DNA from: Candidatus Eiseniibacteriota bacterium
GTDB lineage: Bacteria > Eisenbacteria > RBG-16-71-46 > CAVPCR01
Direction of reading: 5' to 3'
NCBI GenBank assembly: GCA_963702435.1
Contig: CAVPCR010000004.1
Coordinates: 384,001-448,000, forward strand
Length of the DNA stretch: 64,000 bases
The notes under the pieces are model-generated. The model saw only the letters and a list, made by a program, of their open reading frames with translations. It had not been told where the DNA came from and did not search any database. This document shows positions 28,817 through 61,110 of this stretch, one piece after another. The translations under genes were made by a program, and so were the position numbers. The number at the start of each line of letters is the position of its first letter. Position 1 is the first letter of the stretch.

Positions 28817-29100
28817 CATCGAGCCGCACGGCGTTGTGGACATGGAAGCCGGAGTAGGGCCAGGCGGGCATGGAGGCGGCCACGTCGTCGCTGAACAGTC
28901 CGCGCTGGACGAAGGCGCGGAGCACGGCCCGGCGGAAGGCCTCGGTCAGCACCGCGAGCGCGTGGGTGCCGAGCGGCACAAAGGTGCCGTCGAGGCGAAA
29001 GGCGCCGTCGGTAGCGAGCACGAGCAGGCGGGGGTGCCAGTTGGTGAGCGTGCCATGGGTCTGGATCGAGGAGATGACGCCGGGGACGGCGCCGTCCGCA
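28817..29100 (-). pseudogene. Diverged internal fragment of the IS91/ISCR-like transposase
   Basis: 'VPGVISSIQTHGTLTNWHPRLLVLATDGAF...SGFHVHNAVRLD' matches 52411-53862; HUH motif HPHLH decayed to HPRLL. Confidence 0.88.
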
Positions 29101-29358
29101 CCGAGAGTGGCCCGCCCGCTGGTGCCGATAGCGGGATAGAATGCCGCTCAGGCCCAAGGTGCGCTATCGGACCCCGTGTCGCGAGTGAAAATCGCGTAAC
29201 CTCCTGGAGAGGCGCCCTGCGGTGAGAAACCGCCGTCGCTCATGCCAGTGGTCTATCCCGGCTGAGGCGCCAGGTTGCTGTGACACGCGGCTGCCGCGGA
29301 GCCCGGTGCGGGAGCGGGGCGAACGGAGCGCGAGGTTCTGAGAGGGAGAGCGGAAAGG

Positions 29359-30270
29359 GTGATCGAGATCATGTCGCCGCGGGATGCGATCCAGTCCGAG
29401 TTCGCGCTCGGCGCGGCGGAGTCCGATCCGGGGCCGCCGCCGGCCTGGATCACCGAGCCCGCGAACGAGGAGGCGATCGCGAGCGCGCTCGCCGAGCTCG
29501 ATCCTGAGCAGCAGGCGGCGGTCACGCACGGCGAAGGGCCGCTCCTCATTGTCGCCGGCGCCGGCACCGGGAAGACGCGCGTCATTGCGCATCGCATCGC
29601 CTATCTCATCGCCGCCAGGAAGGCCGAGCCGTCCGAGATCCTCGCGCTCACCTTCACCGAGCGCGCCGCGGCGGAGATGGAGGCGCGGGTCGATCTCCTC
29701 GTCCCCTATGGCTACACGGACATGTGGATCTCGACCTTCCATGCCTTCGGCGACCGTATCTACCGCGAGTACGCGCTCGAGATGGGGCTCTCCGATGCGG
29801 CGGTCGTCCTGAACGAGGCGGAGCGGCTCGTCTTCTTCCGCGAGCGGCTCTTCCGCCTCCCGCTCCGGCGCTTGCTGCCGCTCGGAAACCCGGTGCGCCA
29901 CCTGGCGGCGCTCCTGCGCGTCGTCGCGCGGGCGAAGGACGAGGGGGTGACGCCCGAACGCTACGTCGAGCACGCGCGCATCGAGCTCGATGCAGCGGCG
30001 GCGGAGGCGGCGGCCGCCGCCGATGATCTCGACGCCGGCGCCCGCCTCGCCGCGGCGCGCCGACAGCTCGAGATCGCCGAGACCTACCGGGCCATGGACG
30101 AGGAGCTGCACGCGGCCGATCGCATCGACTTCGGCGATCAGCTCCTCCTCACGCTCCGCCTCCTCCGCGAGCAGGAGCACGTCCTCGCCCAGGTGCGCCG
30201 CCGCTTCCGCTAATCGCGGTCGCCGATCGCGTGCACGCCTTCGTCGATCACCTCGAGCTCCTGGTGGATG
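29359..30270 (+). pseudogene. Truncated UvrD/PcrA-type helicase
   Basis: 'AGAGTGKT', 'LTFTERAA.EM', 'STFHAF', 'IDFGD'. Stops at 'RRRFR*' just before the expected Walker B (VDEFQD). A short 'DRVHAFVDHLELLVDA' piece then runs into an element end. Confidence 0.85.
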
Positions 30271-30509
30271 CCGATCATCCTCGGCAGCGCGAGGGGAGAG
30301 GTGCGCCCAGCGGGGACCGGGGGTCGGTCCGCGGGACCGCCTCGCCGCGCGGCGGCCGTGGCCACCCCGCGCCAACACCACACGCTGACGCGCGGCCGCC
30401 GCTCACGCCACCGATTAGATGCGCCGCCGCCGCCGGTCACGCCGCTTCGCCCCCCGTTCCCCGCCTCCTCCCGGCGCCGCGACGAAAGGAAATTCCTATC
30501 CCTATCCCT
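30268..30509 (+). mobile_element. Transposase-less 3' end (oriIS region) of the IS91/ISCR-like element
   Basis: Diverged copy of the 3' non-coding region seen at 35750-36021, ending GACGAAAGGAAATTCCTATCCCT plus ATCCCT. Confidence 0.85.
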
Positions 30510-30514
30510 TCGAC

Positions 30515-31753
30515 TCACAGCACTCTCCACCAGGGTACGGCCAGCACGTCGGGAGCCAGCCACTCGATCGTCCTTCCCGTGTGCAGCACGAGCCCAGCGC
30601 GCGCCTTCTTGCCGTACTCTGCACGGAAGGTTCGCACATGGGCCGCGTCGCCGAGCCGGGGCCGGCCTGTCGCCTTGACCTCGACAGGCAACAAGCGCCC
30701 GCCCGCCTCGATCACGAAGTCCACCTCCTCGCCGACGCTCGTTCGCCAGTAGAAGACATCGGCTCGCTCCAGGCGCGCGTCCCGCCACGCCAGAAGATCG
30801 TGAAGGACGATGTTCTCGAGATGGGGGCCGCCGGGCTCGGCGCCCCCCCCGAGATGCAGCGCCACTCCCGTGTCACCCCAGTAGAGCTTCGGAGACTTGA
30901 TGAGCCGCTTGGTGCGATTCACCGCGTACGCGGGCACCCGCACCAGCAGGTAAGAAGTCTCGAGGAGATTCAAGTAGCGGTGCACGGTCGGCTGGGGCAG
31001 CGCGACATCTCGGCCTAGTTCCGTCTGGTTGACGAGCTGGCCCAGCCGCTGGCCGGCCGCGCGCATGAGGCGGCGGAAGTCCGGCAGTGCCGCGACCGCG
31101 GAGAGATCCGGCAAGTCGCGCTCGAGGTAGGTGCGAACGTAGCCGTCGAACCACACCGCCCGCTGCCGGTCCGTCTTCAGGTGAACGGCCGGCGTCGGAA
31201 AGCCGCCGCGGCGCGCCAGGGCACGCCAGTCCTCCGGCTCGTCGGGCTCTGCCGACATGAGGTCGAGCCATTGCTCGTCACGGGCGGCAAGCAACTCGTC
31301 CCAGAGCCCGCAGCGGCCGAGCCCGCGCTGCTCCCGGCGCGTCATCGGCCACAGGGTGAGATAGCTCGCTCGACCGGCCAGCGACTCGGAAACCCGGCGC
31401 ATCAGGAGTAGATTGGCCGACCCGGTGAGCAGAAAATGCCCCGGCCGCCGGCGGCGGTCGATCGCCCGCTTGACGGCGCGCAAGAGATCCGGCTCGCGTT
31501 GCACCTCGTCGAGCGTGACCGGCTGCGGACCGCCGAGAAGCACCTCGGGATCGCGCCGTGCCGCATCGACCGTATCCAGATCGTCGAGGGAAAGGTAACG
31601 CCTCCCCGCCGGGGCGAGATCCTGCACCAAGGTGCTCTTCCCGGTCTGGCGGGCGCCGGTCACTACGACAGCGGGCATGGTGCTGAGGCATTCGTCGAGA
31701 CTGCGGCCGACAAGCCGCGGAAGGGTGGCATCCATGCCGCGAATGATAATCAT
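30515..31753 (-). CDS. AAA_14 / DUF4143 ATP-binding protein
   Basis: 'GARQTGKS', 'LDEVQR', 'LTGSA', 'ESLAGR', 'GGFP', 'TYLERD', 'KSPKLY', 'EVDFVIE...VEVK'. ATG 31735 is an alternative start. Confidence 0.9.
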   Translation of the reverse strand: MIIIRGMDATLPRLVGRSLDECLSTMPAVVVTGARQTGKSTLVQDLAPAGRRYLSLDDLDTVDAARRDPEVLLGGPQPVTLDEVQREPDLLRAVKRAIDRRRRPGHFLLTGSANLLLMRRVSESLAGRASYLTLWPMTRREQRGLGRCGLWDELLAARDEQWLDLMSAEPDEPEDWRALARRGGFPTPAVHLKTDRQRAVWFDGYVRTYLERDLPDLSAVAALPDFRRLMRAAGQRLGQLVNQTELGRDVALPQPTVHRYLNLLETSYLLVRVPAYAVNRTKRLIKSPKLYWGDTGVALHLGGGAEPGGPHLENIVLHDLLAWRDARLERADVFYWRTSVGEEVDFVIEAGGRLLPVEVKATGRPRLGDAAHVRTFRAEYGKKARAGLVLHTGRTIEWLAPDVLAVPWWRVL

Positions 31754-31912: not shown

Positions 31913-32011
31913 AGGGATAGGAATCTCCTTTCGTCAATAGCCCGGGAGGAGGAGGAGAACGGGGAGCCAAGCCGCGCGCGCGACCGACCGGGAGGCGTCC
32001 GCGGCGTGGCG
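31913..32011 (-). mobile_element. 99-bp terminal (oriIS) piece of the IS91/ISCR-like element, inverted
   Basis: Reverse complement matches the last about 99 bp before 36021, ending ctattgacgaaaggagattcctatccct. Confidence 0.88.
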
Positions 32012-32019
32012 GCGGCAGC

Positions 32020-32299
32020 TCGCTCTCGCGGTCCTCTGTCTCCGGTCGCGTGCAGAGCGCCGTGACGAAGCGGCTGCCGAACTCGCGCCAATGGCTGAAC
32101 ACCGGCGGAAGGACACCTGCCCCACCTCGGCGGCTCCGAGCCGGAGGAGGCCATGCCCGGCTCCGCGATGGAACGCCCGTCGGATTCGTTCGCCGAGCAC
32201 CGGGCCGAGCAAGGGGGCATCGTCCTGCGGCACGATCACCAGGCGACCGTGGGGCGTGAGAGAAGGGGTCAGTCCAAGCTCGGTCGAGGTGGACGTCAT
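32020..32299 (-). pseudogene. Frameshifted N-terminal fragment of a SNF2-family helicase
   Basis: 'LTPHGRL...AFHRGAGHGLLRLGAAEVG' and 'FSHWREFGSRFVTALC' resemble N-termini of bacterial SNF2 proteins; cut by the element end. Confidence 0.55.
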
Positions 32300-32583
32300 C
32301 TCTGCGCGCCCTTGCCGAGGTGGCGCATGAGATCGTCGATGAACCACGAGGGGGGAGGTGCTCCGGCAGACCGGTACTCGACAGGGACGACGACGTAGAA
32401 GCCGCGCTTCGGGACGACCAGGCGGCCCTTGCCGGCGAGCCGCATCACTGCCTTCTTGAGCATCACGGCGCTCGTCCCGAGCGCGGCCAGCGCCTCGGTG
32501 CGATCGAAGGTGTACCGACCTGCGCCCTGCAGGTCGTTCACAAGATCGGCCAGCGCTCGGTGTCTTGGTTCGTTGTCAGCCAC
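32296..32583 (-). pseudogene. Truncated type IV TA AbiEi-family antitoxin (N-terminal part)
   Basis: 'LQGAGRYTF...RGFYVVVPVEYRSAGAPPPSWFIDDLMRHLG' then ends; no abiEii partner adjacent. Confidence 0.7.
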
Positions 32584-33444
32584 GTCAGCTCCCCCAGGGA
32601 CCATTGTCGGATGCACAAAGCACCTCGGAGAGGGCCTTTTTGCAATCGTTATCGCGATTCAGCCTTGACCTGCCGGCGGGCGAAATGCGGTGGCTGCGCG
32701 GTTGCGCGCCGAGGTCCAAGGGGCTCAAGCGCCCTGAGTTCGGCGTTCGGCGGCGAGGTTGCCCTTCAAGCGACGGCCGCCTCTCCCACCGGGAGCCGTC
32801 AACCCGGCGTCACAAGGAGGTCTCAGTTCATCGCGTGATTCGAACCTGCAACCGGTGCCGTCGCTTTGGGCAGCAAGCTCAGGGCGGGCACGAAGCCGCA
32901 GGTACCTCATGGCCCGAATCGCCGCCGGTTCGGTGAGGAAGTCCATGTGTGCTCCTCTCTGGCTGAAGAAGCAGGTGGGGACTGGCTCCGGCGGCTGGAA
33001 CGGGAGAGGCGTCATAGGCCCTGCCGAAGCTAGTGACCACGACGCCTTTCGCGATGCAGCCGGGACGCCGTCTGGCGGCAGCGCTTCTTCTTTGGCCGTC
33101 GTGTCTACCGCTGACGCTGCTGTACGGCTCCCGTACCCGCCCCGCCTCGCAGACCGGCACATATGGCTCCCCATCTTGGACGGTGTGCGAACGATTCTCG
33201 TTCTTCGAGTCCCCCGGGTCATCCGGCCGGACCATCCGCCTCCCCCCGCGGCCGAGGGCCCCATCCATCCCGAGGCGACCAGGGAGATGGCATGGAGCAG
33301 GGCCGATCGGACGTGCTGCGTCCAGCTTCTCGGCAGCGCGACGCGGTGCGAGACGTGAGAGGACGTCATCCTGCGCTCCCGGTAACTCCGCTGCCGCTCT
33401 TCGCAGTGGACCCGCCGCCCGTGCCAAGGTAGAATCGGTTCCGC

Positions 33445-33921
33445 ATGGACTTCGGTGAAGCCAAACGAATCCTGGCCGCCTTCGAGCGAGAGGGAGTCCG
33501 TTACGTGCTCGTGGGCTCGATGGCCATGGCCGCGCAGGGGCTCATCCGAGCCACGCGGGACATGGACTTGTTCGTGGCTGCCGACCCGGAGAACATCGCC
33601 CGTCTCCGCTGTGCGCTCAAGACGCTCTTCCCTGAGGATCCCAATGTGGACCTGATCACGGCAGAGGACCTCGGGGGAAGCTATCCCGCGATCGAGTACA
33701 CACCACCTCATGGCCTCTACTCGCTCGACATCCTGACCCGGCTTGGCGAGGCGTTCCGGTTCGAGGACTTGGAGGCGGAGGCGATCGTCGTGGAGGGCAT
33801 CACGATCCGGGTTGCCACGCCGCGCACGCTTTACCGCATGAAGAGGGGGACGGCCCGGCCGCAGGACCGCATTGACGCCGCCGCTATCCGTGAACGATTC
33901 GATCTCCCGGAGGATGCCTGA
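33445..33921 (+). CDS. Pol-beta-like nucleotidyltransferase
   Basis: 'YVLVGSMAM...RATRDMDL' GS/DxD motif and 'MKRGTARPQDRID'. Confidence 0.8.
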   Translation: MDFGEAKRILAAFEREGVRYVLVGSMAMAAQGLIRATRDMDLFVAADPENIARLRCALKTLFPEDPNVDLITAEDLGGSYPAIEYTPPHGLYSLDILTRLGEAFRFEDLEAEAIVVEGITIRVATPRTLYRMKRGTARPQDRIDAAAIRERFDLPEDA

Positions 33922-34232
33922 TGGGAGTGCGGCGATACCGATCCGTGGAGGACATGCCCGCGGGCTCTCCCCGCCGCCCGCTGGATCCCGAGAACCTGGT
34001 GATTGCTTTCGGGCTCATGGATCTCGCGCACCGCATCGCCGCATTGTCATTCCCGCCCGGCATCAAGAAGTACCGCTCCCATGACGAAATGCTGCGCGCG
34101 CGCGAACGGTGGGCGGCGGCCGGGACCCACGGGTCACGCGACGGAGACGATTGCGGACTTCAAGGCCGCGGGGATCCGCACCTACATCCCCGAACCCAAA
34201 ACCCCCGGGGGCCGTCGCCGCTGGAAGGGTAA
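33921..34232 (+). CDS. Small protein coupled to the nucleotidyltransferase; 3' end probably replaced by an IS fragment
   Basis: TGATG overlap; internal repeat 'GVRRYRSVEDM' / 'GIKKYRSHDEM'. Confidence 0.6.
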   Translation: MGVRRYRSVEDMPAGSPRRPLDPENLVIAFGLMDLAHRIAALSFPPGIKKYRSHDEMLRARERWAAAGTHGSRDGDDCGLQGRGDPHLHPRTQNPRGPSPLEG

Positions 34233-34248
34233 ACCACCGGCCCCGTAG
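34125..34248 (+). pseudogene. Fragment of a DDE transposase (IS1182/IS5-like)
   Basis: 'GHATETIADFKAAGIRTYIPEPK...RRRWKGK' resembles the segment after the ADKGY motif. Confidence 0.45.
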
Positions 34249-34444
34249 TATCTGCCTGTGCCTCCCGAAAACTGTCTCTCTGTCCCTCCCGAAAACCCCG
34301 TAGCCGCCTGCCCCAATTGAGTATGCGCCCGCTCGGCCTCGCCGTCCTGCCGTTCTTCCCGTGCCGACCAGCGGAATCGGGTACTCCCTTGCGTCGTGGT
34401 AGTCTCCCTGCTCTCCCCGCAGGCCCGAGCGGTTGCCGCGACCC

Positions 34445-35749
34445 ATGACGCCTATCTTCGCCGCCCTCTTCGCGTTCCTCGGCGCCAGCCTTCGTTCCCG
34501 GGCCTCGATGCAGCTTGAGATCCTCGCGCTCCGGCATCAGTTGGCCGTCTGCCAGCGATCTCTGAAGCGACCGCGTCTCCGGCCCGCCGACCGCCTCCTC
34601 TGGCCCTGGCTCGCCCGCCTCTGGCCGCGCTGGCGAGAAGCCCTCATGATCGTTCAGCCGAGAACCGTCATCACCTGGCAACGGCGCCGCTTCCGCGAGC
34701 ACTGGACCCGTCTCTGCCGCTCGGGGAAACCTGGACGGCCGTTGGTAGCGAAAGAAGTGCGTGTTCTCATCCGGCGGCTGTCGGCCGCCAATCCACTCTG
34801 GGGAGCACCGAGGATTGTCGGCGAGCTCGCCAAGATCGGAATCGCCGTGACCAAGGCCACGGTCGAGAAGTACACGCTCGCCAACTGGCATCCCCACCTG
34901 CACGTGCTCGCCACCGACGGCGCCTTTCGGCCCGACGGCACGTTCGTGCCGCTCGGTGTTCACTCGCTCGCGGTGCTGACCGAGGCGTTCCGCCGCGCCG
35001 TGCTCCGCGCCTTCGTCCAGCGCGGCCTGTTCAGCGCCGAGGTGGCCGCCTCCATGCGCGCCTGGCCCCACTCCGGCTTCCATGTCCACAACGCCGTGCG
35101 GCTCGATGGGGATGACCTCGGCGGCCTCTTGCCGCTCGCTCGCTACGCAGCCCGCGCCCCCCTCGCCCTCACCCGCATCACCTACGACGCTGCAAAGCCG
35201 CAGGTCCTGGTTGCCTCCGACAAGGCCGAAGGGCCCACCGCCGGGACGCATGCCTTCGCTCCTCTCGACTTCCTTGCCCAGCTCCTCACCCACATCCCGC
35301 GCCAGGGCGAACACCTCGTGCGCTACTACGGCGCGTATGCGAGCCGCACCCGCGGCACCTGGCGCCGGCAAGGGATCGGCCCCTGGGTCGAGCGGCAGCG
35401 CGGCGAGGGGGACCAAGAGGACGAGCCACCGGGTGCACCCCGCGATGCCAACGCTGATCCTGGCGGTGACCCGGTGGTGCCACCTCCGGAACCGCTATCC
35501 CCATCGCGGGCCGCGCTCAGGAAGCGCTGGGCGGAACTCCTCCGTCGCCTCTACGAGGTCGATCCGCTGAGTTGCCCGCGGTGCGGGGGCGAGATGCGGA
35601 TCATCGCCTTCCTCCTCGATCCACCGGTGATCGACGCCATCCTCCGCCACCTCCGCCGCGCTGCCTACGACGCGCGGGCCGGCCCGTGGGCGGAGGTGGT
35701 TGGGAGCAATGCGGTGGCGGGGGACGCCGGCCCGGCGGGGTGCGGCTAG
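34445..35749 (+). CDS. Chimeric transposase: N-terminus of an integrase-core (rve)-type IS protein fused in frame to the IS91/ISCR HUH domain
   Basis: 'LEILALRHQL...IVQPRTVITW...GRP...NPLWGAPRIVGEL..IGI.V...TVEKY' joined at 34873 to 'TLANWHPHLHVLATDG'. Confidence 0.85.
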   Translation: MTPIFAALFAFLGASLRSRASMQLEILALRHQLAVCQRSLKRPRLRPADRLLWPWLARLWPRWREALMIVQPRTVITWQRRRFREHWTRLCRSGKPGRPLVAKEVRVLIRRLSAANPLWGAPRIVGELAKIGIAVTKATVEKYTLANWHPHLHVLATDGAFRPDGTFVPLGVHSLAVLTEAFRRAVLRAFVQRGLFSAEVAASMRAWPHSGFHVHNAVRLDGDDLGGLLPLARYAARAPLALTRITYDAAKPQVLVASDKAEGPTAGTHAFAPLDFLAQLLTHIPRQGEHLVRYYGAYASRTRGTWRRQGIGPWVERQRGEGDQEDEPPGAPRDANADPGGDPVVPPPEPLSPSRAALRKRWAELLRRLYEVDPLSCPRCGGEMRIIAFLLDPPVIDAILRHLRRAAYDARAGPWAEVVGSNAVAGDAGPAGCG

Positions 35750-36021
35750 CCCGGCCGGCCGCGGCCAGCGCGCGGTTTGGGGTGCTGCCGATCACCATCG
35801 GCAGCGCAAGGGGAGAGGTGCGCCCAGCCGCGACCGGGCGTCGGTCGGCGGGGCCGCATCGCGGTGCGGCGGCCGCGGCCACCCCGCGGCAACGTCGGGC
35901 CACGACGCGCAGTCGCCGGTCACGCCACGCCGCGGACGCCTCCCGGTCGGTCGCGCGCGCGGCTTGGCTCCCCCTTCTCCTCCTCCTCCCAGGCTATTGA
36001 CGAAAGGAAATTCCTATCCCT
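34873..36021 (+). mobile_element. 5'-truncated IS91/ISCR-like element, copy A
   Basis: Near-identical to 52986-54134; ends GACGAAAGGAAATTCCTATCCCT about 270 bp after the stop. Confidence 0.92.
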
Positions 36022-36022
36022 T

Positions 36023-36256
36023 GATCGGCTGTACGACGCTGAGGGCCAGAACGTCGGGTACTTTCGCGGTGATGTCGCGTATTCGCTTCAGGGAGATTAC
36101 CTCGGCGAGCTATACGACGACGAGCGCATCGGGAAGCGCACGACGCGCATGCAGAGCAGAGGAAGCGCGATGATGGGGCACGTCGGGATCGCCCTGATGA
36201 GGCAAGTCGGACGCGTCGGCCTGTCGGTTGCTGGGTGGTCAGACCCGGATTTCTAA
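36023..36256 (+). pseudogene. Small protein resembling the 4-fold beta-flower family, start removed by the element end
   Basis: 'DRLYDAEGQNVGYFRGDVAYSLQGDYLGEL...GWSDPDF*' begins right after the terminus with no start codon. Confidence 0.45.
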
Positions 36257-37113: not shown

Positions 37114-38352
37114 TTACCTGAGGACAATGGCCTTATGGGTGAGGTCTCGGCCGGCGGCGTGGATGCGGTAGAAGTAGACGCCGGAGGAGACCGGTTGCCC
37201 GCCATCAGTGCGGCCGTCCCAGGTGGCGGCGTGCTCGCCGGGGTCTTCGAAACGGTCGACGAGCCGGCGGATGAGGCGACCACTGGGCGTGAGGACATCG
37301 AGAGTTACGTGCCCGCGAGTCGGGAGCTGGTAGGTGATGCGGGCAGATCCGGGCGAGGGGTTCGGCGCTATCCCGCGAAGCGCAAACGGTGGGGCCATCG
37401 GCACGTGATCCCGGACGGCGTAGACGAGTCCGAGACAGTTCGTGCCCTTGGGGACGCCGATGTCGAGAAAGATGTTCCCTGGTTCGTTCGCAAAGGGGTA
37501 CCCGAAGGTGTCCCATCCTTCGCAGAACTCAGAGAATTCATAGATGAAGTGCCCGCCGATCATGTAGTTGACCGAGACATCGGCGATCTCAGTTATCCCG
37601 GTATAGAAGGTGGTGCTGTTGTCGTCATCGTTATAGGCGTCGTGGTCGTTGGGAAGGTCGTAGATGTCCCAGAGGTGGGTGGCGACGGCACGCTCCGCCG
37701 ATTCCCCGCGCGGGTAAGGGGTGTTTCCGCCCCATTCGAGGTCGTAGGTCTCGGGCAGCGTGTCGTTGAGGGCACCGTTGTAGACGTAATCTTCGAACAG
37801 GAAATCGTTGGTGGCCCCGCACGGGTAGAACCACGCCCAGCCTTCACTGTACGCGCAGTATGGGTCGGTGACAGCCCCCCAGTGATGGCTGTTGCAGGGG
37901 GTGGTCGGCGGTGGGAGGGCCGCAAGGGTGTTCAACACGTGATGGGCATATTCATGGCCGATGATGTCGAAGTCCCACTCATCGAATCGAATGTCGCTTG
38001 GTGGATTGCTGTAGCCATCGAGGTGGATGATCGCATCTAGGCGTGTGTAGTAGGAGTATGTTTGTGGTAGCGTGCGGTCCCAAATGCACTGGACTGGCGG
38101 GGCAGTGTAACCGGTCGCCGTCTCGGTGAAGTGGGCGAGGTCGTAAAGGTCGTATGTGATGTTGAAAGCACCGCGCTCGGTGCCGGTATAGGTGAAGGCC
38201 CCATAGAGGCCTTCGAGATCGATGAAGTTGGCGTTGTTGACGTACCGGGCCGCAAGGGGAAGCCAGACGCCATATCCATAGAGGTAGTCGTCTTGATCGA
38301 CAACGGTCCGGTAGTCGACCAGGTCGGTGGTCCATGTCGGGATGAAGAGCTG
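37114..38352 (-). pseudogene. 3' part of a transposon-interrupted secreted zinc metalloprotease with FlgD-Ig tail
   Basis: The frame stays open upstream of the ORF-track start to 38352 and contains 'WDFDIIGHEYAHH' (HExxH), 'AYSEGWA' and C-terminal 'APNP...WDG...SGVYF'. Confidence 0.8.
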
Positions 38353-38407
38353 TGAGCGTGGGCGCGGTGTTTGATGGCATTTGAGTCACGCATGTCGAGG
38401 GGAGTGT

Positions 38408-39247
38408 TTATCGCGCCTTGGCGCGGCCGCGGTCGGGGACCTTCGGCACGGTGAAGACCTCGAGGTAGAGCTTTTCGTCGAGCTGGCGTGCATCACGCTG
38501 AACGGCAGCATCGAGGAGCTCTCCGGCCATGGTCATGAGGATGCGGTAGTTGCCGGCGGCGTGCTCGCAGAGCGTGGTCATGAGCTCGGTCGTCATCAAG
38601 TGCGGGTTTCCGGTCTGGTTGAGGGCGTGACGCAAGCATTCGAGCAGTTCCTGTGGAGTGGCGGGCTGGAGGACGAGGCGAACACGCATCCGGCTGCCGA
38701 GGGGAAGGAGCTCCTCGCCGCGGAAGTTCTCGGTCAGGCGAGAGTCACCGCCGAGGACGACGGTGAGGAGCGCGCGGGAGTCGAGCTCGGTGGCGCAGAG
38801 CAGGCGGAGCTCGTTGAGCACGGCGGGCCGCATCTCCTGTGCCTCGTCGACGATGAGCACGGGACGGAGGAGAGCGGCTTCGATGTGCGCTTGCCAGCGT
38901 TCGCGGAGCACCCGGGCTCCGGCCCAGCGGTTGTGGGGTGAGAGCTGAACGCCGAACAGGTCGCCGAGCTCGCGGTAGAAGTCGGGGACGCCGCTCTGGG
39001 GACGGGTGAGGATCCCGACCATGAGGTCACGATGTCCGGAGAGCTTGTCGACGAGGAGCCGCAGCGCGACCGACTTGCCGAGTCCGGGATCGCCGGTGAT
39101 CAGGGCGAAGCCTCCTTCGCGGGTCAGGTTCTCGACGCGCCACGAGAAGTGCTCGAGCTTGGGAGTGAGGAGGAGCGCCTCGATGGGGACCTCGGGCGAG
39201 AAGGGGTTCCACTTGAGGCCATGGAGCGAGAGGAGCTTCGGGTTCAT
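38408..39247 (-). CDS. ExeA/AAA_22-family transposition ATPase
   Basis: 'GLKWNPF', Walker A 'GDPGLGKS', Walker B 'LIVDEAQ'. Confidence 0.9.
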   Translation of the reverse strand: MNPKLLSLHGLKWNPFSPEVPIEALLLTPKLEHFSWRVENLTREGGFALITGDPGLGKSVALRLLVDKLSGHRDLMVGILTRPQSGVPDFYRELGDLFGVQLSPHNRWAGARVLRERWQAHIEAALLRPVLIVDEAQEMRPAVLNELRLLCATELDSRALLTVVLGGDSRLTENFRGEELLPLGSRMRVRLVLQPATPQELLECLRHALNQTGNPHLMTTELMTTLCEHAAGNYRILMTMAGELLDAAVQRDARQLDEKLYLEVFTVPKVPDRGRAKAR

Positions 39248-40764
39248 GGCTGGTCCTCCTGGAGAGTGGTCTGCGGGGGCGGCGCGTGGTGCGCGGCGAG
39301 TGGATACGGTGCGGGTTTCGGGAGATAGGCCGGCGGGAGGCCGGTGGCGGCGTAATCTTTCATCAGCTGGCGCATCAACGGCGCCATGCCGGACTCGGTC
39401 GGCGGATCCTGATCGCGGGTGGCGAGGGGATCTTCAGGCAGTCGACGCCTGAGGCCGTCAGCGTTACGTGCCTTGTCGAGGGGGTAAAGTTGACAGAGTA
39501 CCGCTCCCGTGCGTTCGTCGACGAGGTGAACCTGAGAGAGGTCCCAGGTGGCGTAGCGCACGGCGACGCGTTCGAGGGTGCGGTAGTGCGCGGGGATCTC
39601 GAAGCGGCATCCCTCGAGCGTCAGGGTGCCGTCGCTACGGCGCTGAGTGCGCCGCACTTCGATCGTGAAGGCGAGGCGCAGCGGCTGGCTGTCGGGGCTC
39701 GATCGGCCGACGTCGGGTCCTTGGAGGTAGCGTTCGACGGGGGACTGGTGGATCTCGGAGTGCACGGTGCGGTTGTACTCCATCTCGGCCCAAGCCTGGG
39801 TGGCCTCGTTGAGAAGCGGCAGCGTCAGGTCGCGCACTCCTTCGAGCATGGCGATCAGCCGTCCTTCGAGCTGGGCCCAGAAGACTTCTTGTTTGGCGTT
39901 CTGGTAGGCGGAGTAGGGCAAGGTCAGGTGATGGAGGATGCCGAGCCGGGCCAGGCCCTGGGTCACCTCGCCAGCCTTCATGGCGGTGCCGTTGTCGCTC
40001 ATCAACGACCTCGGCAACGAGCGCTTCTGAATCGCCTGCGAGAGACCATGCACGAGGTTCTCCGCGTTCTCAGCGTGGTACCATTGCGCGTGACAGACCA
40101 ATCGTGAGCGATCATCGAGGATCGCCAGAACCTGCGGGATCACCCACTCGCCGTCGGGCGTGAGCACCTTCTTCGAGCCGGCGTGGAAGTCGAGATGCCA
40201 AAGCCCGTGGACGTACTCGGCCTCGAAGCTACGCACCTCGCGCTCATCGAGCCGTGCTTCGGCGCGTCGCACCCCGGTGGTGTCGGCGCTGGAGACCCGG
40301 CGCCGCTTCCACAGCCCGTTGGCCTTCATGAACCGACGGACGGTCGAGTACGAGGGTAGCGGCCCGAGGGTCGGATCCGCACCCGCCAGCACTGCGAGGT
40401 TGTCGTAGTGCAGCGCGTAGCTCCAACCGCGGTGGGCCTTGTACAGTTCGTGAATCGCCTGCTTGAGCCCGTCCCCGATCGCGAGCGCCCGGCCGGAGTC
40501 CTTGCGGATCTTGCGCCGAAGCACCCTGACTGGATCGAACCGCTCCCGCTTCGCCTGGTGATACCAACGTTCGATGGTCGACACCCCGAACTGCATCGGT
40601 CGAGCGGTCACGGGGTGGAGCCACTGCTTCTCGGCCAGCTTCCGGAGCTCGCCCTGAAGCTCGCCACGCGCCGGCGGCGCCGCCAGGAGCGGGCCGATCA
40701 CCGAGAAGCGCAGATGCGCCCAGCGTTCGTGGACCGTGAGCTTACGGTTCTCGTCGTCTGCCAT
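39244..40764 (-). CDS. DDE (rve) transposase with Mu-like C-terminal domain
   Basis: 'LWHLDF', 'LDDRSR', 'SDNG', 'AKQE', 'YNRTVHSE', 'DGTLTLEG..FE'. Confidence 0.9.
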   Translation of the reverse strand: MADDENRKLTVHERWAHLRFSVIGPLLAAPPARGELQGELRKLAEKQWLHPVTARPMQFGVSTIERWYHQAKRERFDPVRVLRRKIRKDSGRALAIGDGLKQAIHELYKAHRGWSYALHYDNLAVLAGADPTLGPLPSYSTVRRFMKANGLWKRRRVSSADTTGVRRAEARLDEREVRSFEAEYVHGLWHLDFHAGSKKVLTPDGEWVIPQVLAILDDRSRLVCHAQWYHAENAENLVHGLSQAIQKRSLPRSLMSDNGTAMKAGEVTQGLARLGILHHLTLPYSAYQNAKQEVFWAQLEGRLIAMLEGVRDLTLPLLNEATQAWAEMEYNRTVHSEIHQSPVERYLQGPDVGRSSPDSQPLRLAFTIEVRRTQRRSDGTLTLEGCRFEIPAHYRTLERVAVRYATWDLSQVHLVDERTGAVLCQLYPLDKARNADGLRRRLPEDPLATRDQDPPTESGMAPLMRQLMKDYAATGLPPAYLPKPAPYPLAAHHAPPPQTTLQEDQP

Positions 40765-40821
40765 CGCGTTCGCCTCCCTTTCGGGCGGCCGAGCCTGGCC
40801 GCCGTGATGTGGGAGCGGACG

Positions 40822-41466
40822 CTAATCGCGGTCACCCTCGGCCCGCACCGCGCGTCTTCTGCGGGTGGCCCGCGGGGTCACCCGGCGCCGCACATAGCTT
40901 GCGCATTCCGGCGCCGACGCGGTGGTGATCGGGGAGAGGAATCGCAGGAGGGCGATCAGCCGGGAACGGTCATCGCCAGGGAAGCGACCGAGGAGCACGC
41001 GGGGTAGATCCATCGCGAGCAGGCGTCCGGTGAACCGGCCGCGGGCCACGCTCCAGAACCGGCTACGCGCGAAGGTGGTGCGCCACCACCGGCGCCACCG
41101 GGCCAGGGTCCGGGAGCTCACCCCCAGCCATTGCCGAAGCTGCCGTTGAGCGCGCCCCCGCCCTCGCATCGCCGCCAGGACGACCACCGCCGCGGAGTAA
41201 ACCCGCCGGCCCAAGAAGCGTACCGAAGGTGGCGTCAGCCGCCGCCGGCACCCCTCCACGGCGCAGCACAAGCTCAGTCGGAGGTCATACCGGACCGCCA
41301 ACCGCTCTGGAAGACCCCGCGGCTTACGGGGGTAGTTCGCCTGGTCGACCCTCCCGCCGCACCACCCGCACCCCCCGCGGCGGGCCGCCCGGGCGAGATC
41401 CTGGTCGTACTGAAAAAGGACCTCGTAGAGCCGCTCGTCCCTGAGCAGATCCTGGTACAATCCCAT
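40822..41466 (-). CDS. Transposon accessory protein with Cys motifs and HTH (DUF6431-like)
   Basis: 'CGWCGG', 'SLCC...CRRR.TPPSVRFLGRRVY', 'RTLARWRRWW'. Confidence 0.7.
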   Translation of the reverse strand: MGLYQDLLRDERLYEVLFQYDQDLARAARRGGCGWCGGRVDQANYPRKPRGLPERLAVRYDLRLSLCCAVEGCRRRLTPPSVRFLGRRVYSAAVVVLAAMRGRGRAQRQLRQWLGVSSRTLARWRRWWRTTFARSRFWSVARGRFTGRLLAMDLPRVLLGRFPGDDRSRLIALLRFLSPITTASAPECASYVRRRVTPRATRRRRAVRAEGDRD

Positions 41467-41632
41467 CCTCCTTCGTCTTTGCTGGACTGAAGGAGGAAAC
41501 CCCCTCGGGGCGCTTGAATCAAGCTCCTTGAGGGGGTTCTGCTTGCACTCCCTGATGGCGCCTCGGACGATTCCATCAGTGATCGTGATCCGAAACGCCG
41601 TCCCCGACCATCAACTTTCTTGCTTACGCTGA

Positions 41633-42874
41633 CTGATCGACTGATACGTTGTACATGCCCCAACTGCCAGAGCCGTCCGTCTCGGTCGCCTGGTCAAATC
41701 GGAAGTAGAATGTGCCGCCGGGGACGGTAAACTGGTACTGTCCGTTGGGGTGAGTGTAGTAAAGTTCAGTAAGAAGATACTTCATCGCCCTATTGGTCTG
41801 TGGCCCTGTCACGTTGTCGTAGTCCTGGTAGAGATACCTTCCCAAGATGTCGAAGTCGCGGACGACGCGCACGGGATAAGGATCCACGGTGAAGCCGGTT
41901 TTGCGGGCGCGGATCTCGCCGGTCATCGCGGCGGTGCCGGCAGTGAAGCGGGCTTTGTGATCGGGAAGCTCGGTGATGGTGCCTAAAGATGCCGGGACGA
42001 GCCACCACTCCTCCATGTCGAGGATCGTACCCGGAGGATACTCGTACCAGAAGAGCATGCAGTATCCGCTTGTGACTTGAAAGTATGGGAAGTTAACGGA
42101 ACGGACAGGACCGGCTGTGCAATCACCCTGGTAGCGGGGACTCAGGGATCCGTGGTCACGGGCAGGGGGCTGGGAATGCGGGGGATCGATGCAACAAGGG
42201 TCAGGGCGCTTGTTGACCTGGGGTGCGACGTCTGGTTCGGGGGGAACAGAGACGGTGGGTGGTGGGGGAGTGGTGACGGGGTGGCTTGTGCTATCGCTTC
42301 GAGGTGCACCCTCTGGGTATGCCTGGAGGATGTCGTAGGCAAATGGCGGCGTGGGGGAGGAGGGATCAGGGGCGCGTGGACGGTAACCGTGGATGCAAAC
42401 AGGAAGGGATGCCGCTGCCAGAGGGGTATCGGGAGATGCAGGCCCGTCGGCCGTGCAGGACCACGGACGGATGGGGTTGATGCACTGTGCGCGGATGGTG
42501 TCGCTTCCGCAAGTGGTGGCAACGAAACGCACAGAGAGTTGGAGGGGCGTATGTGGCTTGAATGAACCACGCCAGTGCTTGCCCTTCCGCGTCAAGAGGA
42601 CACCGCCCTCACGCGTCCAGACGGTGCGCGACGTGGTGTCTTGGGGCGCAGCGATAGCTATGCCCGGACAACCGAGTGATGCCAGGGCAAGATCCATTGG
42701 CGCATCAGCGGTAAAGCTCGCAGTTACCGAGACCGTGTCCCCGACGCTAATCTCGGTCTTGGAAGCAGTGAGTTGAACGCGAACGTTCGGAGCAGGCTCT
42801 TGGGGCGCTGCGGAGGTCGAGGAGATTGCCAAAACAAATGCAGCGCAAGCAAGGGCCGGGTTGAGATGCTTCAT
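41633..42874 (-). pseudogene. 5' part of the interrupted secreted metalloprotease
   Basis: AGGAGG RBS, ATG 42874, signal peptide. The frame ends within a few codons of entering the transposon IR. Confidence 0.72.
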
Positions 42875-43038: not shown

Positions 43039-44293
43039 TCATCCGGCGGCTGTCGGCCGCCAATCCACTCTGGGGAGCACCGAGGATTGTCGGCGAGCTC
43101 GCCAAGATCGGAATCGCCGTGACCAAGGCCACGGTCGAGAAGTACACGCTCGCCAACTGGCATCCCCACCTGCACGTGCTCGCCACCGACGGCGCCTTTC
43201 GGCCCGACGGCACGTTCGTGCCGCTCGGTGTTCACTCGCTCGCGGTGCTGACCGAGGCTTTCCGCCGCGCCGTGCTCCGCGCCTTCGTCCAGCGCGGCCT
43301 GTTCAGCGCCGAGGTGGCCGCCTCCATGCTCGCCTGGCCCCACTCCGGCTTCCATGTCCACAACGCCGTGCGGCTCGATGGGGATGACCTCGGCGGCCTC
43401 TTGCCGCTCGCTCGCTACGCAGCCCGCGCCCCCCTCGCCCTCACCCGCATCACCTACGACGCTGCAAAGCCGCAGGTCCTGGTTGCCTCCGACAAGGCCG
43501 AAGGGCCCACCGCCGGGACGCATGCCTTCGCTCCTCTCGACTTCCTTGCCCAGCTCCTCACCCACATCCCGCGCCAGGGCGAACACCTCGTGCGCTACTA
43601 CGGCGCGTATGCGAGCCGCACCCGCGGCACCTGGCGCCGGCAAGGGATCGGCCCCTGGGTCGAGCGGCAGCGCGGCGAGGGGGACGCGGAGGACGAGCCA
43701 CCGGGTGCACCCCGCGATGCCAACGCTGATCCTGGCGGTGACCCGGTGGTGCCACCTCCGGAACCGCTATCCCCATCGCGGGCCGCGCTCAGGAAGCGCT
43801 GGGCGGAACTCCTCCGTCGCCTCTACGAGGTCGATCCGCTGAGTTGCCCGCGGTGCGGGGGCGAGATGCGGATCATCGCCTTCCTCCTCGATCCACCGGT
43901 GATCGACGCCATCCTCCGCCACCTCCGCCGCGCTGCCTACGACGCGCGGGCCGGCCCGTGGGCGGAGGTGGTTGGGAGCAATGCGGTGGCGGGGGACGCC
44001 GGCCCGGCGGGGTGCGGCTAGCCCGGCCGGCCGCGGCCAGCGCGCGGTTTGGGGTGCTGCCGATCACCATCGGCAGCGCAAGGGGAGAGGTGCGCCCAGC
44101 CGCGACCGGGCGTCGGTCGGCGGGGCCGCATCGCGGTGCGGCGGCCGCGGCCACCCCGCGGCAACGTCGGGCCACGACGCGCAGTCGCCGGTCACGCCAC
44201 GCCGCGGACGCCTCCCGGTCGGTCGCGCGCGCGGCTTGGCTCCCCCTTCTCCTCCTCCTCCCAGGCTATTGACGAAAGGAAATTCCTATCCCT
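43039..44293 (+). mobile_element. 5'-truncated copy B carrying the same rve/IS91 fusion junction as copy A
   Basis: 43039-43144 matches 34767-34872; the IS91 part starts at 43145; ends ...TTCCTATCCCT. Confidence 0.92.
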
Positions 44294-44738
44294 GAGATGC
44301 GGATCATCGCCTTCCTCCTCGATCCACCGGTGATCGACGCCATCCTCCGCCACCTCCGCCGCGCTGCCTACGACGCGCGGGCCGGCCCGTGGGCGGAGGT
44401 GGTTGGGAGCAATGCGGTGGCGGGGGACGCCGGCCCGGCGGGGTGCGGCTAGCCCGGCCGGCCGCGGCCAGCGCGCGGTTGGGGGTGCTGCCGATGATGA
44501 TCGGTTGCGCGAGGGGAGAGGCGCGCCCTGCGGGGATCGGGTGTCGCTCGGCGGGGCCGCTTCGCGGTGCGGCGGCCGCGGCCACCCCGCGGCAACGTCG
44601 GGCCACGACGCGCAGTCGCCGGTCACGCCACGCCGCGGTCGCCTCCCGGTCGGTCGCGCGCACCACCTCGCTCCCCGTTCTCCTCCTCCTCCCGGGCTAT
44701 TGACGAAAGGAAATTCCTATCCCTTATCCCTTATCCCT
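44294..44738 (+). mobile_element. Tandem second 3' end (copy B') from a different allele, ending (TATCCCT)x3
   Basis: Restarts at gagatgcggatcatc (as at 43863); the non-coding part differs at many positions from copy B. Confidence 0.9.
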
Positions 44739-52190: not shown

Positions 52191-52410
52191 CACCGGGATC
52201 GAAGTGATAGTGACCGGGCAGGCGACCGCTGATCGCGCGCTGGTCGAGAAGGCCTATCGATTGCTCGTCGAGTTCCGGGACCGGGCCCCGGAGTCGTACC
52301 GCGGGAAGCTTCCGTGTACCTCGTTGCCGGGGGTTCGGCCGCTGACCCGGGGAAGCCGCTGACTCCCGCCCCGATAGTCCTGGCATCGATCGTGATCCGG
52401 TCCCGGGGGC

Positions 52411-53862
52411 GTGGTCGCATCTCTCGGCAACGACCCGAAGACGCGGGCCGCGGGCACCCGTCTGTCCGCTACCGGCGCCCGCACCGGTGTCTACCGGCCG
52501 CGCCGTCCCCAGGCCTCGCCGCTCTACCGGCTGATCGAGGAGCACTTCGAGCGGGTGGCCACGGCATGGGAGGAGCGCTACGAGCCGCGCTACGGTCGGT
52601 GGCGGCCGGTCATGCGCGCGGTGGTCGAGAAGTTTCTCGATTGCGGCTTGCTCGAGCCGGGCTTCGCGCGGGTGCGTTGCGGCGACTGCGGGGCCGAGTT
52701 CCTGCTTGCCTTCAGCTGCAAGTGCCGCTACTTCTGTCCGTCCTGCCACGCCAAGCGCCTGGCCCTCTGGTGCGACTGGCTCGAGCGCGAGCTCCTGCTG
52801 CCGATCCCGCATCGGCAGTACGTCTTCACCGTCCCCAAGCGCCTGCGACCCTACTTCCTCTACGACCGCCGTCTGCTCGGGCTGTTGAGCCGTGTCGCCT
52901 ACGACACCATGCGCGACTTCATGCGCGCCACCCTCGGCGCGGATGACGTCGTCCCCGGCGTCATCTCCTCGATCCAGACCCATGGCACGCTCGCCAACTG
53001 GCATCCCCACCTGCACGTGCTCGCCACCGACGGCGCCTTTCGGCCCGACGGCACGTTCGTGCCGCTCGGTGTTCACTCGCTCGCGGTGCTGACCGAGGCG
53101 TTCCGCCGCGCCGTGCTCCGCGCCTTCGTCCAGCGCGGCCTGTTCAGCGCCGAGGTGGCCGCCTCCATGCTCGCCTGGCCCCACTCCGGCTTCCATGTCC
53201 ACAACGCCGTGCGGCTCGATGGGGATGACCTCGGCGGCCTCTTGCCGCTCGCTCGCTACGCAGCCCGCGCCCCCCTCGCCCTCACCCGCCTCACCTACGA
53301 CGCTGCAAAGCCGCAGGTCTTCGTCATCTCCGACAAGGCCGAAGGGCCCACCGCCGGGACGCATGCCTTCGCTCCTCTCGACTTCCTTGCCCAGCTCCTC
53401 ACCCACATCCCGCGCCAGGGCGAACACCTCGTGCGCTACTACGGCGCGTATGCGAGCCGCACCCGCGGCACCTGGCGCCGGCAAGGGATCGGCCCCTGGG
53501 TCGAGCGGCAGCGCGGCGAGGGGGACCAAGAGGACGAGCCACCGGGTGCACCCCGCGATGCCAACGCTGATCCTGGCGGTGACCCGGTGGTGCCACCTCC
53601 GGAACCGCTATCCCCATCGCGGGCCGCGCTCAGGAAGCGCTGGGCGGAACTCCTCCGTCGCCTCTACGAGGTCGATCCGCTGAGTTGCCCGCGGTGCGGG
53701 GGCGAGATGCGGATCATCGCCTTCCTCCTCGATCCACCGGTGATCGACGCCATCCTCCGCCACCTCCGCCGCGCTGCCTACGACGCGCGGGCCGGCCCGT
53801 GGGCGGAGGTGGTTGGGAGCAATGCGGTGGCGGGGGACGCCGGCCCGGCGGGGTGCGGCTAG
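52411..53862 (+). CDS. Full-length IS91/ISCR-family HUH rolling-circle transposase
   Basis: Zn-binding 'CG..C...SCKCRYFCPSC', 'HRQYVFTVP', HUH 'WHPHLH', single Tyr 'LARYAARAP', 'HLVRYYG', C-terminal 'CPRCGGEM'. Confidence 0.95.
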   Translation: MVASLGNDPKTRAAGTRLSATGARTGVYRPRRPQASPLYRLIEEHFERVATAWEERYEPRYGRWRPVMRAVVEKFLDCGLLEPGFARVRCGDCGAEFLLAFSCKCRYFCPSCHAKRLALWCDWLERELLLPIPHRQYVFTVPKRLRPYFLYDRRLLGLLSRVAYDTMRDFMRATLGADDVVPGVISSIQTHGTLANWHPHLHVLATDGAFRPDGTFVPLGVHSLAVLTEAFRRAVLRAFVQRGLFSAEVAASMLAWPHSGFHVHNAVRLDGDDLGGLLPLARYAARAPLALTRLTYDAAKPQVFVISDKAEGPTAGTHAFAPLDFLAQLLTHIPRQGEHLVRYYGAYASRTRGTWRRQGIGPWVERQRGEGDQEDEPPGAPRDANADPGGDPVVPPPEPLSPSRAALRKRWAELLRRLYEVDPLSCPRCGGEMRIIAFLLDPPVIDAILRHLRRAAYDARAGPWAEVVGSNAVAGDAGPAGCG

Positions 53863-54134
53863 CCCGGCCGGCCGCGGCCAGCGCGCGGTTTGGGGTGCTG
53901 CCGATCACCATCGGCAGCGCGAGGGGAGAGGCGCGCCCAGCCGCGACCGGGCGTCGGTCGGCAGGGCCGCATCGCGGTGCGGCGGCCGCGGCCACCCCGC
54001 GGCAACGTCGGGCCACGACGCGCAGTCGCCGGTCACGCCACGCCGCGGACGCCTCCCGGTCGGTCGCGCGCGCGGCTTGGCTCCCCCTTCTCCTCCTCCT
54101 CCCAGGCTATTGACGAAAGGAAATCCCTATCCCT
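53863..54134 (+). mobile_element. 3' non-coding arm and oriIS-like terminus of the full-length copy C
   Basis: Same arm as the other copies; variant terminus GACGAAAGGAAATCCCTATCCCT. Confidence 0.9.
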
Positions 54135-54901
54135 AACAGGTCATGGAGACCTTCGGCCGCAACCTCGGCGTGAAGGTCGTGCACGTGGACGCTGCGGAGA
54201 ATTTCCTGGGCGAGCTTGCCGGCGTGGCCGATCCCGAGCAGAAGCGCCGCGTCATCGGGCGCATCTTCGTCGAGGTGTTCCAGCGCGAGGCGGCGAAGCT
54301 CCCCAAGGCGCGCTGGCTCGCGCAGGGCACCATCTACCCCGACGTCATCGAGTCGGCCGGCGGCAAGACCAAGAAGGCGCACACCATCAAGAGCCACCAC
54401 AACGTGGGCGGTCTCCCCGAGACGCTGAACCTCAAGCTGCTCGAGCCGCTGCGCGAGCTCTTCAAGGACGAGGTGCGGGAGCTGGGCATCGCGCTGGGCC
54501 TCGCGCACGAGATGGTCTACCGCCACCCGTTCCCGGGGCCGGGGCTGGGCGTGCGCATTTTGGGCGAGGTGAAGCGCGAGTACGCGGAGCTCCTGCGGCG
54601 CGCCGACGCGATCTTCATCGACGAGCTGCGCGCCGCCGACTGGTACGACAAGACCTCGCAGGCCTTCGCCGTGTTCCTGCCCGTGAAGTCCGTGGGCGTG
54701 ATGGGCGACGGGCGGACCTACGAGTACGTCGTCGCGCTGCGCGCCGTCCAGACGCAGGACTTCATGACCGCCCACTGGGCCGAGCTTCCCCACGCGCTGC
54801 TGGGCAAGGTCTCCAACCGCATCATCAACGAGGTGCGGGGCATCAACCGCGTCGTCTACGACATCTCCGGCAAGCCCCCCGCCACTATTGAGTGGGAGTA
54901 G
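54135..54901 (+). pseudogene. guaA: C-terminal half of GMP synthase, 5'-truncated by the element end
   Basis: 'DPEQKR..IG', '[11 protein letters not shown]', '[11 protein letters not shown]', 'HPFPGPGLG', 'KPPATIEWE*'. The GATase domain and PP-loop are missing. Confidence 0.93.
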
Positions 54902-60775: not shown

Positions 60776-61110
60776 GATCGGCCTGCGGCAATTGGGGCTG
60801 GCGACCGCACCTTTCCCGGATGAGGTAGACCACCCGAGCACGACGCCCGTCCCCGTGCCCGAGAGTGGTTCGAGCACCGGCACACTCGGGGAGCCATCAT
60901 CGGGAGTCGCGAACTGCAAGCGGCTCCGTGGTTTAACGCGTGACCCCGGTGGAGCGATCCGCCGGGGTCGGGGGTTCGAGGAACGGAACGCGGCAGCATC
61001 CGGGCAGGCCACCCCGGGGTGCCCGGGGCGTTGAGGGTCACGTCAACCGCGAGGATTCCGTCGACCGGCAGCGCTCCAGTCCTCCACGATCCCGCGCTCG
61101 GGTTCCAGGG

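Follow-up and report, generated by a model that had tools for sequence, protein, structure and literature searches.

The window analyzed here, 64,000 nucleotides from Candidatus Eiseniibacteriota bacterium (contig CAVPCR010000004.1, positions 384,001 to 448,000), contains an open reading frame that joins the start of one transposase gene to the catalytic end of another, and the same join recurs at a second place. The locus raises the question of whether this hybrid gene encodes a new kind of DNA-binding nuclease, as the original prediction proposed, and of how its junction came to be present twice. We consider it likely that the hybrid arose when a chance deletion joined an rve_3 transposase gene to an IS91-like element, that the protein is, by prediction, catalytically dead, and that a trimmed second copy, copy B, likely spread passively. 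The genome holding the window, referred to as G000, is an assembly of 6 contigs that is 85% complete.

The chimeric open reading frame and its rve half

The open reading frame at 34445-35749 on the forward strand begins with ATG and encodes 434 amino acids without an internal stop, in agreement with what had been read from the sequence. Its first 142 codons (34445-34872, forward strand) come from an rve_3 (PF13683) DDE transposase of the IS3/IS481-like kind and encode a long N-terminal helix and a helix-turn-helix (HTH), with the DDE domain missing. The remainder is codons 193-483 of an IS91/ISCR-like HUH transposase; fusion residues 144-434 correspond to residues 193-483 of native TnpA as encoded by copy C, described below. 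The junction lies at 34871-34874 on the forward strand, with a hybrid codon, TAC, at 34871-34873 and a 2-bp CA microhomology at 34873-34874. Native rve DNA reads ...AAGTACA at this point (...GAGAAGTACA in three of three aligned loci of native relatives) and native tnp DNA reads ...TGGCACG, which places the breakpoint in the CA microhomology. A same-strand break within coding sequence is in frame by chance in 1 of 3 cases, and the in-frame state of the join is not beyond chance.

The element sequence of copy A starts with base 34873 and reads on as native codon 193. Copy A (34873-36021, forward strand) is the 3' 1,149 bp of the element, composed of native codons 193-483, a stop codon at 35747-35749, the 3' noncoding part, and the terminus, oriIS; it is 99.0 to 99.7% identical to copies C and D. 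The oriIS end (36002-36021, forward strand) carries a family-wide motif and is common to copies A, B, B2, C, D, F, and G, and its last 4 bases may belong to the target instead of the element. Immediately to the right is a 5'-truncated beta-flower-like gene (36022-36256, forward strand; Pfam Bflower E value of 0.0009, below the cut-off), and not the 3' half of the rve gene.

Residues 1 to 142 of the fusion are 90% identical to P0001, an intact rve_3 protein of 340 amino acids. This identity backs the earlier assignment of an HTH N-terminus, which is weak by Pfam alone (HTH_32, E of 0.004; HTH_21, E of 0.02; both under the cut-off). The rve profile gives no match in the fusion, i.e., the DDE integrase core is absent. 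The rve homologs (best 120 of 1,619) are mostly proteins of approximately 342 amino acids with PF13683, and none lists PF04986. P0001 itself scores below the cut-offs of the IS481 (84.1 versus 224) and IS3 (75.2 versus 160) families. The relatives of this insertion sequence (IS) are 1.2 to 1.65 kb long and have TG...CA inverted repeats of about 23 bp, which were found as pairs in 9 of 14 loci examined, representing 8 distinct elements. Like other rve_3 "integrase core domain" elements (approximately 342 amino acids; IS3/IS481-like), the one at this locus has, besides the 90% identical N-terminus, a left terminal inverted repeat (IRL; 34281-34304, forward strand), where homology to an intact element (L002) of the same-genus genome G001 begins. 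There is also a partial extra copy of that repeat at 34257-34272 on the forward strand. Unlike those elements, copy A has neither the DDE domain nor the right inverted repeat: an inverted-repeat scan of G000 gave three matches, all of the left-end type, and a tblastn search of the 85% complete assembly found only the rve pieces of copies A and B and did not find residues 146-340 of P0001.

The DNA just upstream (33164-34289, forward strand) is a module made up of a nucleotidyltransferase-like gene (33445-33921), a small partner gene, a short fragment, and the inverted-repeat remnant. It is 98.5% identical over 1,130 bp to a locus in G001 (L013:12572-13699), where the module stops within the repeat remnant and unrelated DNA lies beyond. 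The nucleotidyltransferase-like gene and its small partner alone (33445-34140 and L013:12851-13540) are likewise 98.5% identical between the two same-genus genomes. By appearance they look like a recently moved two-gene module, possibly a toxin-antitoxin-like one.

These features bear on how copy A formed. A simple insertion of a truncated element into an rve gene was rejected, because the right flank is a beta-flower-like gene and not the rve 3' half, which was not found in G000. The sequence itself shows that a CA microhomology connects the left end of an rve IS, of intact type, to an IS91-like element that has lost its 5' part; the remainder of the rve IS was not found in the 85% complete assembly. 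The simplest reading of the sequence is insertion followed by microhomology deletion. The element would first have inserted with its oriIS end in the beta-flower-like gene. The stretch that ran from rve codon 143 through tnp codon 192 would have been lost afterward, either by deletion at the microhomology or by untargeted truncation, with the reading frame surviving by the 1-in-3 chance. We infer this order of events, since a search for the empty site in four related genomes found none.

The single-tyrosine parent and the truncated HUH domain

The parent of the catalytic half is represented in the window by copy C, a full-length element of 1,826 bp (52309-54134, forward strand) with an uninterrupted 483-amino-acid TnpA at 52411-53862. 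This TnpA has PF14319 (Zn_Tnp_IS91) and PF04986 (Y2_Tnp), both above the cut-off, and passes the IS91 family model NF033538 with 161.7 bits against a cut-off of 125; the copy A fusion, with 61.5, fails it. A second full-length element in G000, copy H (C4:468834-467022), is 97.7% identical and is without the last 12 bp. Copies C and H have a common left end at CTTC, the left end of C being defined against H, and this end forms only an imperfect fold of about -9 to -11 kcal/mol, calculated without a shuffle control. Like the IS91 family (IS91, IS801, and IS1294), the parent has the two Pfam domains, passes the family model, and combines variable left ends with a fixed end, marked by a constant tetranucleotide, on the downstream side of tnp. 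Seven window copies finish at one base and start at different places, and all 10 oriIS ends in G000 continue with CCCT, which may be either target or element sequence. The differences from the IS91 family are that the 102 bp before the parent tnp is too short for an orf121-sized gene, that the copy A fusion is without the N-terminal 192 residues, and that the parent has one tyrosine instead of a pair, which one study gives as Y249/Y253 (PMC5714925). In our alignment, Y283 is invariant and position 279 is R, Q, H, or P and never Y, in 78 of 78 sequences. Native codon 279 (35132-35134 in copy A) encodes Pro in all close G000 copies, including C and H, and R, Q, or H in 77 of the 78 aligned sequences.

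ISCR elements are Y1, and the parent shares with them the single catalytic tyrosine and many 5'-truncated copies with captured flanks; its oriIS motif, we assume, also resembles the ISCR end. It differs in scoring 141.6 with the ISCR clade Ia model NF052416, below the cut-off of 925, which the fusion, at 48.9, also fails. The parent element is a new single-tyrosine member of the IS91/ISCR group. For IS91, one-ended transposition and action in trans are described as established (PMC13181058); for single-tyrosine elements, another account puts transposition as being without experimental demonstration as of 2018 (PMC6218425).

The fusion keeps a complete HTH with its own IRL and start codon, the HUH motif, the tyrosine, and the C-terminal CxxC, all without a frameshift. 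The HUH motif H151-L-H153 (native H200/H202; 34895-34903, forward strand) is invariant in 78 of 78 aligned relatives, and the single catalytic-type tyrosine, Y234 (native Y283), is encoded at 35144-35146 on the same strand. The Y2_Tnp profile covers positions 13-178 of 183 in the copy A fusion. The original prediction that the Zn-binding domain had been removed while HUH and Tyr were kept is accurate in these respects, but residues from approximately 130 to 192 of the catalytic domain are gone as well. Retention of the HUH and Tyr motifs should not be taken for retention of the HUH domain.

A structural model of native TnpA (78 alignment rows; pLDDT, 70.6; pTM, 0.58) has sheet strands at 134-140, 183-191, 198-206 (the HUH strand), and 262-269. 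Its fold matches are led by solved HUH domains, the best being 3wrn (Z of 9.2); a Foldseek search with the same model gave no match at an E of ≤0.001. The compact HUH Reps 1l2m, 9pqf, 4er8, and 3dkx align from model residue ~132 onward (Z of 5.2 to 6.3), and the cut at residue 193 therefore falls inside the HUH domain. The fusion has lost about 60 residues of that domain with two core strands, 134-140 and 183-191. Within the lost stretch 130-192, 21 residues are conserved in at least 90% of the 78 relatives, and the invariant residues lost include H134, R135, P142-R146, and Q189; overall, the fusion loses 52 of the 130 residues conserved at this level. It starts at native residue 193 and is without the PF14319 Zn domain. 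In HUH topology the first strand is presumably motif I, lying beside the HUH strand, and the first strand of the native sheet would then be motif I. One study describes motif I as one of three motifs that determine activity (PMC5714925).

In the fold prediction that had been suggested for the fusion, the central sheet is lost, with no strand at the HUH motif, pTM is 0.25 versus 0.58 for the parent, and pLDDT is below 50 at residues 132-156; the helices and hairpin after the HUH motif reach a pLDDT of 70 to 82. The fusion alignment had 37 rows, none of them for residues 1-143, versus 78 for the native model, and part of the contrast may be technical, from the shallower fusion alignment without a matched control. 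A fold search with the low-confidence fusion model returned only generic helices at residues 1-46 and was uninformative. Three substitutions in the fusion are rare in relatives: P54 (0 of 120), M68 (0 of 120), and native L254R (1 of 119; also in copies D and H). With strands one and two of the HUH sheet gone, together with the invariant Q189 and the Zn domain, the protein is predicted not to nick DNA, and the models suggest that it is probably not a working nuclease. The idea of a new DNA-binding/HUH combination is not supported: the cut runs through the core of the HUH domain, no listed homolog has both parts, and the copied form is without 107 of the 142 rve codons. A scan of 34100-36200 for sigma-70-like promoters and terminators gave no match and no RNA datasets containing the sequence are listed, neither of which is evidence on expression.

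Read support and searches for the fusion elsewhere

Six read runs were assembled over the region, and a single one, the public short-read run X1, bridges the junction. Its 612-nt contig has 101 nt to the left and 511 nt to the right, at a depth of 3.8, and provides the read support whose absence would have counted against the junction. In runs X2, X3, and X15, contigs have loose ends no more than 2 bp from the junction, and these carry native tnp sequence. X1 shows no differences from other parts of the window that it matches and may be the source sample; its support is therefore not biologically independent. The X1 junction contig is another mosaic, with B-type alleles at two sites and H-type alleles at four, which may reflect a third copy or low-depth merging. 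None of the six runs bridges the left boundary of copy B or the joint between B and B2; the X1 contig begins 5 bp inside the part shared by A and B.

The recommended search for the junction in genomes and metagenomes did not recover it: a junction 27-mer had no match in the JGI metagenomes, and all seven genome matches of a 21-mer were in unrelated genes. Among the matches listed, none of 239 homologs aligns to both halves, and the fusion was likewise not seen in the best 120 of 1,619 plus the best 120 of 1,528 protein matches (238 to 760 amino acids only), or in the DNA of 41 genomes. Nor did it occur in the 29 rve loci retrieved by searching 206 genomes or among 79 IS91-like loci; in one of the latter, L076, a distinct rve gene lies about 2 kb off. 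These collection scans may omit the window's own genome and very near ones. No conserved fusion family was found in these protein, genome, and locus searches.

Foreign or frameshifted tails were found in 11 of 120 rve homologs (best 120 of 1,619), and foreign N-termini were found in 5 of 119 IS91-like matches listed. In P0050, the same rve N-terminus is joined to a piece of IS110 at residue 139. By these counts, chance chimeras of either half are common. The fusion resembles the chance chimeric open reading frames in IS clusters (P0050, P0019, P0142, and P0233) in being a single-lineage, in-frame join of unrelated mobile-gene pieces, and differs in that the junction here has been duplicated once within the genome. 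Fusions of orf121 with tnpA are reported in PMC13181058. In the open-access literature searched, titles and abstract openings gave no description of an IS91 or HUH chimera with a DDE-HTH protein.

Copy B, repeats at oriIS, and the surrounding island

Copy B (43039-44293, forward strand) consists of 106 bp of rve DNA (43039-43144), the same junction, and 1,149 bp of the element to oriIS. The recurrence of the junction with its 106 bp of foreign DNA is exactly as first described: 34767-36021 corresponds to 43039-44293 with 99.6% identity over 1,255 bp, and none of the 5 differences falls in the 106-bp rve part or the junction. The upstream 106 bp (34767-34872 and 43039-43144) is shared and the downstream flank is not, which removes a local segmental duplication that includes downstream flank as the source of B. 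With the junction of A, the exact oriIS end, and no common downstream flank, B bears out the view that flank and element were copied together and truncated anew. It keeps 35 rve codons, the start and most of the HTH being lost.

The left end of B (43040-43061, forward strand) is terIS-like, with CATC, which matches the native start CTTC in three of four bases, and a perfect 6-bp hairpin at 43045-43061. A CATC-type tetranucleotide with a hairpin is found at 0.5 to 0.7% of positions, or about 3 to 4% after testing five truncated ends, by criteria that were chosen post hoc and whose 6-bp perfect-stem test the native left end itself fails. Only B among the five truncated left ends has both features; the copy A start (CACG/ACGC/CGCT) has neither, and copy D starts at an internal CCTA. 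To the right of B is B2 (44294-44738, forward strand), a 431-bp 5'-truncated older copy that abuts the oriIS end of B and consists of element sequence at 44294-44724 and two tandem 7-bp terminus repeats at 44725-44738. B2 is H-like, with 97.4% identity to H and 94.7% to A and B. Beyond it is an interrupted gene unrelated to the left flank of B. The left and right flanks of B do not make up a single target when put together, so that its formation needs no fewer than two events. B also carries H-type alleles at 34987 and 35414-35416 (copy A coordinates), which A, C, and D do not. When copies A, B, C, D, and H are compared, the junction state and each of the single-nucleotide polymorphisms at 34987 and 35058, 115 and 186 bp away, show every one of the four possible pairings, which implies recombination, gene conversion, recurrent mutation, or consensus mixing.

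In the account that we favor, an oriIS at B or farther downstream would serve full-length TnpA from C or H as the starting point of rolling-circle copying, which would pass through the junction and halt at the terIS mimic that lies 106 bp inside the rve DNA. An intact oriIS end in cis would make copying in trans possible, and copy C is a likely candidate source of transposase, although C and H, the presumed donors, both have P279 four residues before the catalytic tyrosine. Recombination or conversion among copies may then have mixed the alleles, a step that is seen as a pattern. The sequence is suggestive of one-ended transposition of B driven in trans. The original prediction of direct evidence for one-ended mobilization finds a fit in the terIS mimic and the oriIS end but is overstated, given the allele mosaics and the flanks that do not rejoin.

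The copies elsewhere in the window provide context for these events. Copy D (58187-59478, forward strand) is 5'-truncated at CCTA (codon 148) and has element sequence to 59471, followed by one 7-bp terminal repeat at 59472-59478. In copy E (28817-29115, reverse strand) a flank is joined to tnp at about codon 172, with about 640 bp lost relative to the homologous H locus, and it appears to be an internal precedent for flank/tnp junctions made by deletion. Copy G (30269-30509, forward strand) is a diverged oriIS-end fragment with one 6-bp terminal repeat (30504-30509) that interrupts a UvrD-type helicase gene, copy F (31913-32011, reverse strand) is a 99-bp oriIS-end fragment, and more diverged pieces of the element are on G000 contigs C1, C2, and C5. 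The terminal repeats consist of the last n bases of the element plus the following tetranucleotide and stand directly after oriIS, with n from 1 to 38 and units of 5 to 42 bp. They follow 4 of 10 oriIS ends in G000 (44725-44738, 59472-59478, and 30504-30509 in the window and C1:1248961), one end in G001 (L013:16953-16970), and, in metagenome loci, 7 out of 41 oriIS-like ends, where about 0.35% per end would be expected by chance; the 41 include likely miscalled ends and six copies of one element (L073-L078), which are not independent. Other loci with such repeats are L019, L021, L055, L058, L066, L070, L073, and L092. The repeats would fit either repeated self-targeting or a process in which oriIS is nicked, briefly extended, and rejoined. 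The titles and abstract openings of the open-access literature searched had nothing on them. If they do record nicking and rejoining by TnpA at oriIS, they would offer a sequence readout of initiation in single-tyrosine elements. In G001, L013:16958-17500 is an oriIS-end fragment of the same subfamily directly behind the end of a different IS91-like element, like B2 behind B.

The origin of B can also be explained by other events. It is possible, although we think it rather unlikely, that the chimera is dead and that recombination or gene conversion pasted the A junction onto an older copy before B2, the left end at 43039 coming from a nonhomologous deletion or template switch. The four junction/allele combinations, the H-type alleles in B with the H-like B2, the further mosaic in the X1 contig, the deletion seen in copy E, and the flanks of B that do not rejoin into one gene are all in keeping with an origin of B without transposition. 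Against that account, the left end of B is on a rare CATC-plus-hairpin site, and the CCTA end of copy D suggests sequence-directed termination in this element family; moreover, allele mosaics could postdate transposition. For the origin of B, we place one-ended copying somewhat ahead of recombination and deletion. A more doubtful proposal is that TnpA repeatedly nicks, extends, and rejoins or reinserts at oriIS, adding 5'-truncated copies of random length, so that single-tyrosine IS91-like elements grow at their own oriIS into head-to-tail arrays with units from 5 bp to kilobases and with captured genes. The 5- to 42-bp repeats, B2, and perhaps larger inter-oriIS cassettes would then be one process and the chimera its cargo. 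The excess of tandem units over chance, the start of B2 exactly at the end of B, and the 5'-truncated genes after A and C point in this direction. B2, at only 94.7% identity to B, is not a simple in-place duplicate, and right flanks that begin mid-gene are equally explained if ordinary insertion into a gene was followed by loss of its left portion. Among the 41 metagenome ends, some are perhaps miscalled, and those of L073-L078 are not independent. If true, accretion of this kind would make the element a bacterial Helitron-like shuffler of gene fragments, with the rve/HUH chimera and its copy as array cargo.

It seems very improbable that collapsed repeats in a metagenome-assembled genome created the junction or copy B during assembly. 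The island is rich in repeats and in allele mosaics and no run bridges the left boundary of B, but no repeat boundary in common with another rve copy coincides with the junction, which was assembled twice with distinct alleles and flanks and is bridged by the X1 contig with 101 and 511 nt on either side. Least credible of all is an expressed functional hybrid, whose HTH would bind the rve inverted repeats while HUH/Tyr nicks, or whose HTH half would serve as a repressor. The intact frame, native start and IRL, complete HTH, and presence of HUH and Tyr speak for such a protein. Its core strands are gone, however, no homolog among those searched has both halves, the substitutions P54, M68, and L254R are rare in relatives, the copied form B has neither the start nor most of the HTH, and no complete rve IS was found in G000 for it to act on. 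The chimera is real but likely dead, a chance product in an IS-rich island that was copied once as cargo. It adds one more example of IS91/ISCR-type elements moving flanking DNA and leaving chimeric debris.

Several other features of the island were observed. Between copies A and B is a three-gene transposon (38348-41633, reverse strand) with genes for an HTH protein, an rve/Mu-type transposase, and an AAA ATPase; it is 99.9% identical to C1:1472917-1476202 of G000, has two 74% relatives, and appears to be a recent insertion. Two UvrD-type helicase loci, 29113-30271 in the window and C4:468863-470981 in G000, are 88% identical, each adjoins an IS91-like copy (E and H, respectively), and they may mark island boundaries. 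Directly after the oriIS of copy C is a 5'-truncated GMP-synthase-like fragment (54135-54901), which we take to be guaA from its sequence and which is likely foreign, being only 73% identical to another locus on C2. An AAA_14/DUF4143 ATPase gene is at 30515-31753 on the reverse strand, with a similar-looking second ATPase open reading frame at 59603-60775 on the forward strand, and a truncated AbiEi-type antitoxin fragment is at 32296-32616 on the reverse strand. Short noncoding repeats at 33121-33390 and 60860-60973 have many copies of 76 to 94% identity in G000 and G001 and are likely the ends of another mobile element. Finally, positions 1-2080 of the window contain internal repeats that are 72 to 81% alike, at spacings in multiples of about 252 bp.
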